Part shown: piece after piece, positions 12,238-49,720 of the stretch
Layout: each line of letters begins with the position of its first letter
How positions within the stretch are numbered: the first letter of the stretch is position 1
Source of the DNA: Octopus vulgaris
Taxonomy: Eukaryota
Assembly (NCBI GenBank): GCA_951406725.2
Contig: OX597828.1
Span: 46,996,001 to 47,060,000, forward strand
Direction: 5' to 3'
Length of the DNA: 64,000 bases
The notes under the pieces: model-generated
What the model was told of the DNA's origin: nothing
The model's input: the letters and a program-made list of their open reading frames with translations, nothing else
The model's database searches: none
Program-made: the position numbers and the translations under genes

Positions 12238-12695
12238 AATCGGCTGTTATTTCTTGTAGATTGAAAAAGTTATCTTTATTTTCGGGAAAAATTCTGTTCT
12301 GTTTCCGACCTTATTGCTTCTGCATTCCTCCACTGTTAAATAATTTTTTTCTTTTTCAATTTATTTTGCGCCCTTCCTAATTTTAACAACCCTGGCAACT
12401 GAGAGCTGATGTGTATACGTCCCCGTAAGCTAGCGATTCGGCAATAGAGACCGATAGATTAAGTACTAGGCTTACAAAGAATAAGTACTGGGGTTGTATA
12501 TAGCGCATGTTTAACTGACAAATTCAGTTGACAAAACATCGCTATCCCCAAGTATAACAATAAAGCAAACCTTGCTCTGCGGTATTTCTTGCCGATCTTT
12601 CCGTTACGAGTTCAAATCTACCGTGATCAACTTTGTTTTTCCTCACTTTTGGTGTCTTGTTTTAATTCTTGTTTTTATCTTTTTATCTTTTACAG

Positions 12696-19524
<6,829 letters not shown>

Positions 19525-30694: not shown

Positions 30695-31660
30695 TTAATC
30701 GCGATTCACTGCAACCGCGTTTGACATAATGACATACAAAAACATTTGCATGTTTCCAGTAATCCCCTATGTTAGTACAAATCCGTTTTATCCTCAAACA
30801 TTGTAGCCTTTAGACGGAATAAGAATATAAGAGAATTATTGACCTCTATATCTGACTCTAAGAAAACGAACATTGGAGTATCTGCACGCTGTACCTTAAA
30901 GAACAGCCGCAAGAGAGGTAAGCCCTATTCTTTGTGCAACAACATGAGTGAAGTGAATTCAATCAGAAATCATAACAGAAATGTTATGATTTATACAGAA
31001 GGTGGAACATGTAAAGATTCCCATTTGGTGTACGTTGCAGAATGCACGAAACACAATTTATGTTGGCTGTACAGCAGAGCAATTAAACAAAAGGTTTAAT
31101 GGGCACAGATTCGACGTTAGGCATAATAACAGTAGTTCGACAGAACTTGCTGAACATTTTGTTTCAAATTTGAAGAAGACTTGAAAGTGCATATTCTCAG
31201 GAAATATTCTGAATCTGCTTCACTTTCACTTCTCAGAATATATGAGGTGAAATATGCTTGCGGGTTATTAACATCATACCCTGGAGGAATGAATAAGATT
31301 ACACGAGAATATCATGAAATTTATACAAAACTTGTTTGATTAAATATTCTTCTTTCTCTCTTTTTCCTTTTCTTTTTTCTGTCGTCTTCTTTTTTCTGTT
31401 TTTTTCAGTCTTTTTCTTTTCGCCTGTTATAAAATTGTAACTTAAAAACTGATGATGTCATTCCATCAACGTGTGGACGCTGGTTGCTCTCGTTCATACT
31501 TTACGTTTAAATTTCTGTAATTTTGAATTTCTATAACTTCTTATTTTGAACTTGACAAAGACAGACGTACTGTTGAAATATCGTTCAACTAATAAAATAT
31601 CTATTACAATCGAATCGCGCTCTTCGTCTTGACTGTTTACCTTTGTGAAGAGTTACGTCA
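30695..31660 (+). mobile_element. Penelope-like retroelement 3' fragment: frameshifted GIY-YIG endonuclease plus 3' terminal region
   Basis: IVAFRRNKNIRELL linker; CKDSHLVYVAECTKH / IYVGCTAEQLNKRFNGHRFD...ELAEHF; hammerhead motif downstream. Confidence 0.88.
31546..31588 (+). ncRNA. Minimal type I hammerhead ribozyme-like motif, U3-A8 core variant
   Basis: UUGAAC-UUGACAA-A-GACAG-ACGUA-CUGUU-GAAA-UA-UC-GUUCAA; perfect 6-bp helix I, 5-bp helix II, AUC triplet. Confidence 0.7.
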
Positions 31661-31779
31661 ATCCTTTTAAAAATATTATTATTATTATTATTATTATTAT
31701 TGTTGTTGTTGTTGTTTTAATTTTTTCCCTTCTTTCAATTTTGTTTCTATGTCTTGTCGATGTCTTCCCGACACTTATA

Positions 31780-47153: not shown

Positions 47154-48847
47154 GGCGGCGGCGGCGGCGGCAGCGGCGGCAGCGGCGGCAGCGGCGGCAG
47201 CGGCGTCGGCGGCGGCACGGCAGCAGCGGCGGCAGCGGCGGTAGCGGCGGCAGCGGCTGCAGCGGCGGCAGCGGCGGCAGCGGCGGCAGCGGCGGCAGCG
47301 GCGGCAGTGGCGGCAGCGGCGGTAGCGGCGGGAGCGGCGTCAGCGGCGGTAGCGGCGGTAGCGGCGGTAGCGGCGGTAGCGGCGGTAGCGGCGGAAGCGG
47401 CGGCAGCGGCGTTAGAGGCGGCAGCGGCGGTAGCGGCGGCAGCGGCAGTAGTGGCGGCAGCGGTGGAAGCGGCTGGAGTGGCGGCAGCGGCGGCAGCGGC
47501 GGGCGGAGGCAGCGGCGGCAGCTGCGGAAGCGGCGACAGCGGCTGCAGCGGCGGAATCGGCGGAGGCGGCGGAGGCGGCGGCAGCGGCGGCAGCGGCGGT
47601 AGCGGCGGAAGCGGCGGAAGCGGCGGTAGCGTAAGCGGTGACAGCGCAACCCGCGGCAGCGGCGGCAGCGGCGGCAGCAGCAGCAGCAGCGGCGGCAGGG
47701 GCAGCGGCGGCGGGGGCGGCGGCAGCGGCGGCAGCGGCGGCAAGCGGCAGCGGCGTCGGCAGCGGCGGCAGCGGTAGCGCTGCGGCCGCAGCGGCGGCAG
47801 CGGCGGTAGCGGCGGCAGCGGCGGTACGCGGCGGCGGCAGCGGCGGCAGCGGCGGCAGCGGCGGCAGCGGCGGCAGCGGCGGCAGCGGCGGCAGCGGCGG
47901 CAGCGGCGGTAGCGGCGGCAGCGGCGGCAGCGGCGGCAGCGGCGGCAGCGGCGCAGCAGCGGAAGCGGCGGAAGCGCAGCAGCGGCAGCGGCGGTAGCGG
48001 CGGCAGCGGCGGCAGCGGCGGCAGCGGCGGTAGCGGCTGCAGCGGCGGCAGCGGCGGCGGCGGTAGCGGCGGTAGCGGCGGCAGCGGCGGCAGCGGCGGC
48101 AGCGGCGGCAGCGGCGGCAGCGACGGCAGCGGCGGCAGCGGCGGCACGGCGGGAGCGGCGACAGCGGCGACAGCGGCGGCAGCGTCGGCAGCGGCGGCAG
48201 TGGCGATAGCGGCGGCAGCGGCGGCAGCGGCGGTAGCGGCGTTAGCGGCGGCAGCGGCGGCAGCGGCGGCAGCGGCGGCTGCACCGGCAGGGGCGAAAGC
48301 GGCGGCAGCGGCGGCAGCGGCGGCAGCGGCGGCAGCGGCGGCGGCGGCGGCAGCGAAGCGGCGGCAGCGGCGGCAGCGGCGGTAGCGGCGGCAGCGGCGG
48401 CAGCGGAAGCGGCAGCAGCGGTGGCAGCGTAAGCGGCGGCAGCGCGTAGCGGCGGCAGCGTAAGCGGCGGCAGCGTAAGCGGCGGCAGCGTAAGCGGCGG
48501 CGGCGGCGGCGGCGGCGGCGTAGCGGCGGCAGCGTAAGCGGCGGCAGCGTAGCGGCGGTAGCGGCGGCAGCGAAAGGAGGTCAGCGGCGGCAGCGTAAGG
48601 CGCGGAAGCGGCGGCAGCGGCGGCAGCAGCGGAAGCGGCGGCAGAGGCGGCAGAAGCGTAAGCGGCGGCAGCGGCGGCAGCGGCGGCAGCGGCGGCATCG
48701 GCGGCAGCGGCTGCAGCGGCGACAGCGACGGCAGCGGCGGAAGCGGCGGCAGCGGCGGCAGCGGCGGAAGCGGCGGTAGCGGCGGTAGCGGCGGCAGGGC
48801 GGAGGCAGCAGCGGCAGCGGCGGAGGCGGCGGCAGCGGCGGCAGCGG

Positions 48848-48878
<31 letters not shown>

Positions 48879-49720
48879 AGCGGCGGAAGCGGCGGCAGAG
48901 GATACGGCGGCAGCGTCGGCAGCGAAAGCGGCAGCAGCGAAAGCGGCAGCAGCGAAAGCGGCAGCAGCGAAAGCGGCAGCAGCGAAGCGGCAGCAGCGAA
49001 AGCGGCAACGTAAGCGGCAGCGGCGGAGACGGCAGCGGCAGCGAAAGCGGCAGCGTAAGCGGTAGCGGCGGAGACGGCAGCGGCAACGGCAGCGGCAGAG
49101 ACGGCAGCGTAAGCGGCAGCGTAAGCGGCAGCGGGCAGCGGCAGCGAGCAGCGGCAGCTGGCAGCGGCAGCGGGCAGCGGTAGCGGGCAGCGGCAGCGGG
49201 CAGCGGCAGTGGGCAGCGGCAGCGGCAGCAGCAGCAGCGACGTCAGCAGTGGTAGCGGCGGCAGCGGTAGCGACGGCAGCGATAGCGGCGGCAGCGGCGG
49301 AGACGGCAGCGGCAGCGGCAGCGGCAGAGATGTCAGCGGCAGCGGCAGCGGCAGAGACGGCAGCGGCAGCGCGGCAGCAGCAGAGACGGCAGCGGCAGCG
49401 GTGGCAGCGGTAGCGGCGGAAGCGGCAGCAACAGCAGCGAATCCAGCAGTGACAGCGGCGGCAGCGGTGGTAGCGGCTGGAAAGCCAGGAGAGGGTGCAG
49501 GGGGCGACTGCAGCCGCGGCGGCACCAACGGCAGTGGTAGCAGCGAGCGGCAGCGGCAACAGCAGCAGCAGCGGCAACAGCAGTAGCGGTGGCAACAGCA
49601 GCAGCAGCAGCGGTAGCAGCAGTAGCGGTGGCAACAGCAGCGGCAACAGCAGCAGCAGCGGTGGCAGCAGCGGTGGCAGCAGCGGCGGCAACAGCAGCAG
49701 TGGCGGAAGCAGCGGTGGTA
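46806..49720. repeat. 2.9-kb GC-rich (GGC GGC AGC)n degenerate triplet expansion
   Basis: Direct reading; register shifts repeatedly through single-base indels. Confidence 0.95.

Follow-up and report, generated by a model that had tools for sequence, protein, structure and literature searches.

Downstream of a broken endonuclease reading frame, octopus DNA carries a segment that reads like a hammerhead ribozyme with U and A, instead of C and G, at core positions 3 and 8. This raises the questions of whether the segment belongs to the minimal hammerheads of Penelope-like retrotransposons, whether its U3-A8 pair was inherited from the element family or arose by decay of this one copy, and whether it could still cleave. 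We considered these in the window, the whole 64-kb stretch of DNA that was analyzed.

Anatomy and fold of the motif

Read base by base, the segment consists of two helices and a core with an extra A, and has no helix III (Table 1). All core bases outside the 3-8 pair are canonical, positions 3 and 8 are paired as U-A, and cleavage is predicted from the sequence to fall after C31582. An earlier note had proposed helix I, helix II, the AUAU palindrome, the AUC triplet and the same cut, and our coordinates agree with it base by base; the extra A31559 had gone unmentioned.

Table 1. Positions in the window of the hammerhead motif, the element around it and related features.
Feature	Position	Strand	Basis or remark
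Inverted 5' piece of element, part of region just after RT core	30696..30803	-	tblastn, aa 227-262 of P0006
Broken linker + GIY-YIG endonuclease remnant	30779..31339	+	alignment to relatives
Pyrimidine-rich tract after stop codon	31340..31430	+	seen in sequence
3' terminal repeat (pLTR) region of high-copy family	31430..31670	+	contig placement; left edge is where placement began, not fixed
Canonical-looking CUGAUGA box	31449..31456	+	seen in sequence; no GAAA after, not a complete hammerhead
Possible helix I extension	31541-31545 with 31591-31595 (span 31541..31595)	+	past 2-nt bulge 31589-31590
Minimal type I hammerhead, U3-A8 core, extra A, G-U-closed helix II, AUAU palindrome	31546..31588	+	base-by-base reading
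Helix I 5' arm	31546-31551	+	pairs with 3' arm 31583-31588, 6 bp
Core U3 U4 G5 A6 C7 A8 A9	U3 31552, A6 31555, A8 31557, A9 31558	+	
Extra A after A9	31559	+	
Helix II, 5 bp	31560-31564 with 31570-31574	+	closing pair G31560-U31574
G12-A13-A14-A15.1	31575-31578	+	
AUAU palindrome (15.1-16.1)	31578-31581	+	
U15.2, A16.2, U16.1, C17	31579, 31580, 31581, 31582	+	
TTA then TTG microsatellite abutting element 3' end	31674..31717	+	seen in sequence
Second, more diverged solo pLTR stub	36594..36765	-	blastn 115/146 identical, E 7e-29

The isolated 55-nt segment folds into exactly helix I plus helix II at -9.1 kcal/mol, an unexceptional energy (z of -1.52; matched by 19 of 200 shuffles). A descriptor combining core, both helices and palindrome, written after sight of this motif and of the published one, has a single match on the two strands of the window, at 31546-31588, and matches in none of 100 block shuffles. 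Hence, it is the rarity of the combined core-plus-helix descriptor, and not the energy, that argues against a chance match. As more native context is included, the helix probabilities drop, from ~0.99 for 55 nt to 0.15 for 241 nt and 0.01 for 331 nt. The possible extension of helix I is weak, being present in the minimum free energy structure of a 141-nt context and absent from the centroid, and the bulge that it spans is variable, with T31590 changed to C in 55-71% across copies. The Rfam hammerhead models gave no match in the motif region, either at the gathering score or at E values up to 10, and this segment without helix III is thus not a canonical type I hammerhead; annotation pipelines undercount such motifs because Rfam misses them. 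When viral, metagenome and prokaryote collections were scanned for the pattern, three, four and two loci came up, respectively; all nine were rejected as chance matches that do not extend beyond the pattern, none having a hammerhead 5' half.

Motifs of this architecture have been described. In its available text, the paper of Cervera and De la Pena (2014, PMC4209133) defines a class of minimal hammerheads (min-HHR) with an extra nucleotide and a palindrome and gives a U3-A8 variant, with ~1,300 matches in Penelope repeats of Schistosoma mansoni, and the accessible part of Perreault et al. (2011, PMC3088659) reports that positions 3 and 8 pair in hammerheads and that C3-G8 covaries naturally to U3-A8, with in vitro activity cited for the U-A version. 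The novelty that the earlier note had implied for U3-A8 is thus lost to papers of 2011 and 2014. As far as that text describes them, the S. mansoni Sm3/Sm4 min-HHR share with the octopus motif the type I form, the lack of helix III, the palindrome at 15.1-16.1, the extra nucleotide between 9 and 10.1 and U3-A8, as well as U-rich 5' and AU-rich 3' flanks, a pLTR position after the endonuclease and an occurrence mostly as solo copies beside truncated elements. They differ in that element family and host are others here, helix I has 6 bp (with the possible bulged extension) and helix II 5 bp, and U3-A8 is joined with a majority G10.1-U11.1 pair. The AUAU palindrome occurs in 5 of the 56 published representatives by our own count, whereas the two U3-A8 representatives carry ACGU or AGCU. 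The covariation in PMC3088659 is the same compensatory 3-8 swap, although in the accessible part it is not tied to Penelope repeats, and the motif here lacks helix III. We found no hammerhead literature naming C3U with G8A and, in the texts available on octopus Penelope hammerheads, no description of this family. Judged by sequence, the 31546-31588 motif has every feature of a metazoan Penelope minimal hammerhead of the U3-A8 subtype, a class marked by a CUGANGA(H) ... GAAA ... UH core in which positions 3 and 8 pair as C-G or U-A, and by a pyrimidine at 11.1 opposite G10.1.

The broken Penelope-like element

Along the insertion lie, in order, an inverted 5' piece, the linker and endonuclease, the stop codon, the pyrimidine tract, the pLTR with the hammerhead and the TTA microsatellite. 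The stop codon of the GIY-YIG remnant (31337-31339) is 207 nt upstream of the hammerhead on the same strand, and the reading frame of the remnant is broken twice, near 31050-31070 and 31160-31185. Pfam gave no matches on the window's own three reading-frame fragments, and a word-index protein search with the first upstream fragment scored none of its 41 candidates; with phmmer, that fragment has 42 relatives at E ≤ 0.001. A Pfam scan of 28 of the 42 found GIY-YIG at E ≤ 0.01 in eight, above the curated cut-off in five. Four of the 42 matches (P0009, P0016, P0032 and P0034) were set aside as repeat-rich unrelated proteins or as having no tblastn match. The relative P0006 carries Pfam RVT_1 plus GIY-YIG and aligns over 30800-31333 (+) with an E value of 4e-16, and its residues 227-262 match 30803-30696 (-) at 47% identity in a tblastn search against the window (E 1e-5). 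It is through this alignment of P0006 to both pieces that the endonuclease identity and the RT-then-GIY-YIG order are established. The inverted piece is matched by P0015 and P0020 too, and ~67 residues of the relative's sequence are absent between the inverted (30696-30803) and direct pieces. The sense-orientation placement of the hammerhead in a Penelope pLTR behind a GIY-YIG remnant, as the earlier note had it, therefore holds, with the remnant supported through its relatives.

Instead of two pLTRs around an intact ORF, this copy has one pLTR and is 5'-truncated, inverted in part and frame-broken, with the RT almost wholly missing; the single pLTR and broken ORF make it a defective copy, like most genomic copies. 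Loose ends of contigs placed on the pLTR turn into TTA/TAA repeats at ~31631-31668, and the TTA/TTG microsatellite at 31674-31717 is likely the insertion target. The linker of the relatives holds a cysteine motif that is degenerate here, one cysteine reading Y. This motif of the relatives may point to the Neptune/Nematis type. Neptune/Nematis-type elements, in the available text of Craig et al. (2021, PMC8557442), likewise have a C-terminal GIY-YIG after the RT and a linker motif like that of the relatives, and inverted 5'-truncated pieces and insertion at microsatellites, as seen here, are described for Penelope-like elements in the same source. The difference lies in their zinc-finger-like linker motif, of which a cysteine has been replaced here, and in the loss of nearly the whole RT.

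Several other repeats occur in the window. A SINE-like repeat of ~184 bp forms head-to-tail arrays at 33877-35025 and 43657-44034 and is scattered through the window too, including beside the inverted piece of the element. At 17450-18609 there is a 34-bp minisatellite of 34 copies with 98% matches, and 46800-49715 is a degenerate GCA/GCG triplet repeat of ~2.9 kb with a GC content of 66-71%. Exon-like pieces of what we take to be a gene resembling an O-methyltransferase lie within ~12690-19460 (+), near 12700-12870, 14900-15050 and 19390-19460.

The 3-8 pair across the family

To place this copy within its family, we used four of 24 listed runs of public data, namely three DNA contig sets from three organisms (X1, X2 and X8) and one raw RNA run, placed on 31430-31670 at a likeness of at least 80%, with changes listed from 5% of depth; a termite-gut RNA run with a 0.05 share was left out of the evidence. 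The DNA runs placed 1,941, 2,022 and 1,948 contigs, and the changes listed made up 40 rows, with 67 further rows outside the listing; to the 40 rows the counts of places by kind of change were matched; the shares are of depth-weighted contigs and not of copies, are unphased values per position, and leave aside copies less than 80% alike. Places with a change from A of at least 5% numbered 7, 8 and 9 in X1, X2 and X8, every one matched to a listed row. Neither A8 nor any other core or helix A is among them, each alternative letter at A31557 stays below 5% of depth in all three DNA runs, and three of the changed A places lie in loop II (X2/X8). For U3, a change to C is below 5% in X2 only, where both T>C places and the single T>A place are listed, none of them being U3, and every change from T is matched to a row; one T>C place remains unlisted in X1 and another in X8, which leaves U3 unbounded in those two runs. 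Given that A8 in three of three runs and U3 in one of three are unchanged at the 5% level, we infer that U3-A8 was inherited from the source element. The outcome that the earlier note had named as the sign of independent decay, other copies with C3/G8, did not occur.

The placement largely refutes the reading that U3 and A8 arose independently, by decay, in this one copy of a C3-G8 family, or that the motif is a chance match, which we regard as very improbable. The second copy in the window does have G8, folding energy alone is not significant and Rfam is silent, but A31557>G stays below 5% of depth in all three DNA runs, the descriptor is absent from every shuffle, and the position of the motif fits the pLTR layout given in the available text of PMC4209133.

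The closing G-U pair of helix II had been read in the earlier note as CpG decay of a G-C pair, and as a lesion of this copy that reading fails. In the DNA runs, C at 31574 (U11.1) accounts for 27, 17 and 28%, and among RNA reads for 26 of 86, so that U is the family majority state, and the neighboring CpG at 31582-31583 is decayed in only 2-12% in the DNA runs; CpG loss in the source element may be the origin of U11.1. By our own count G10.1-U11.1 closes helix II in 8 of the 56 published representatives (PMC4209133, available text).

Frequent listed variation within the motif lies in loop II or is fold-compatible. In X8, the changes of at least 5% listed inside the 43 nt are U11.1>C, C17>U and those at three places in loop II, every one of them fold-compatible, and the private changes of this copy (31531 and 31535) fall outside the motif. 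Conservation of this kind tests selection only weakly in a family that is fairly uniform. In X1 and X2, 13-14 contigs have a loose-end consensus before 31570 with C at core position 4 (31553) and U3 and A8 kept; these are possibly a dead sub-lineage.

The solo pLTR stub at 36594-36765 is 79% identical and reads U3-G8, with the helix I 5' arm lost, a mismatch in helix II and no descriptor match. It sits between TAA microsatellites, and its upstream 30 bases resemble the loose-end consensus of the RNA run at 22 of 30 by eye, a likeness that makes it a likely member of a sister subfamily. Its opposite strand and broken helix I rule it out as a dimer partner. At positions 7-8 the TG of this single damaged copy, set against CA in the main motif, would fit a CG ancestor, and a U-G wobble at 3-8 occurs in nature in a Saccoglossus representative (PMC4209133, in the text available). 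At 31449-31478 (+), 100 nt upstream of the main motif, lie the CUGAUGA box plus a U and a GUC...GAC bracket, which may be what is left of half a core within the same pLTR; T31481 is unchanged at the 5% level in all three DNA runs. As a second hammerhead or internal duplication the box was rejected, since no GAAA follows it and its likeness to the motif is no better than that of shuffles (565 of 1000), and it was also rejected as the missing 5' half of a hammerhead ending in the downstream GAAA, because, by inspection, the arms do not pair. It is conceivable, at a small chance, that the family records the path of the core swap in thousands of datable copies. C3-G8 would first have become the U3-G8 wobble that the older copy at 36594-36765 still has, and CpG loss at C7-G8 would then have given U3-A8; the CUGAUGA box would be a relic of an earlier canonical hammerhead in that repeat.

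Inheritance from the source element leaves the alternative that the ribozyme of that element was already dead, U3, A8 and U11.1 being three transitions fixed by drift (two of them at possible CpG sites) and then amplified since cleavage was dispensable. All three changes are indeed C>T or G>A, the shared CG ancestor suggested by the one stub would agree with this, and the RNA run has no pile-up of ends. As given in the available texts, cleavage is dispensable for insertion in vitro in another Penelope element (PMC11167929), and Naiad elements spread without canonical hammerheads (PMC8557442). Against this, both core changes hit the partners of one pair while the other core bases, the helices and the palindrome are kept, frequent variation is confined to loop II or to fold-compatible changes, and the same swap arose in Schistosoma families (PMC4209133, as accessible) in a version reported active (PMC3088659, likewise in part). 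On balance, we think a dead source element unlikely.

Cleavage and its meaning for the element

In our judgment, held with high confidence, the locus is a minimal type I hammerhead in the 3' pLTR of a high-copy Penelope-like retrotransposon, here present as a broken copy that is 5'-truncated and inverted in part; U3-A8 is the family norm, the motif would likely cleave after C31582 weakly and only if paired with a second copy, and on its own this copy is likely inert. Where two motifs lie in a tandem element transcript, they would swap strands, with their two AUAU palindromes pairing into a helix III of 4 bp, and the cut after C17 would trim the element RNA out of a longer precursor; the source lineage would have retained U3-A8 owing to the importance of the 3-8 pair. 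The computed swapped dimer gains four A-U pairs from the palindromes and comes to -11.6 kcal/mol against 2 x -8.4 kcal/mol for the monomers, in a nearest-neighbor model that ignores core contacts. This unfavored dimer energy and the weakening of the helices in longer contexts are consistent with weak or protein-assisted activity. In the available parts of the sources, a min-HHR monomer does not cleave and dimers and trimers cleave at a low level (PMC4209133), a dimer model is reviewed in PMC6765202 and PMC6155905, and another Penelope hammerhead cleaved only with the element protein and left no RNA-seq ends at the site (PMC11167929). The octopus motif would presumably behave as the published min-HHRs do, with weak, dimer-only cleavage. 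There is no second intact same-strand motif in the 64-kb window, so this copy could cleave only in trans.

The raw RNA run, of which ~6% was read and 282 reads were placed, has no pile-up of molecule starts or ends, which is weak counter-evidence because a fragmented cDNA library rarely shows a cut. The reads run in both directions (143 first and 139 second mates) with similar depth on both strands, and 89% of them run on into unlike sequence; by their sequence, these are old copies inside other transcripts. That the host has recruited this particular copy to cut one of its transcripts we find barely credible. In favor of it, the motif has stayed whole next to a broken coding region, but intactness needs no selection at this locus because the motif is the family majority, monomers of this type are without cleavage in the accessible text of PMC4209133, and the window holds neither a partner nor an RNA end signal. 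The earlier note had taken the compensatory swap as an argument for selection on catalysis; this stands insofar as the swap is not local decay, but it was overstated, as it can concern only the source lineage and not this copy.

The locus also differs from the non-LTR retrozymes, which in the available text (bioRxiv 10.64898/2026.07.22.740005) are likewise type I hammerheads derived from Penelope pLTRs but form tandem arrays without coding sequence, whereas here a single motif is attached to an endonuclease remnant. Tandem units each with a hammerhead are a retrozyme feature, and the window has one descriptor match in 64 kb and no array at the locus.

If the stepwise path from C3-G8 were true, a single genome would be enough to trace the fitness path by which a catalytic RNA underwent a compensatory change. 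The family adds one more high-copy Penelope family with a U3-A8 core, present in several related organisms, and it strengthens the published picture in which the bases at 3 and 8 change but their pairing persists.
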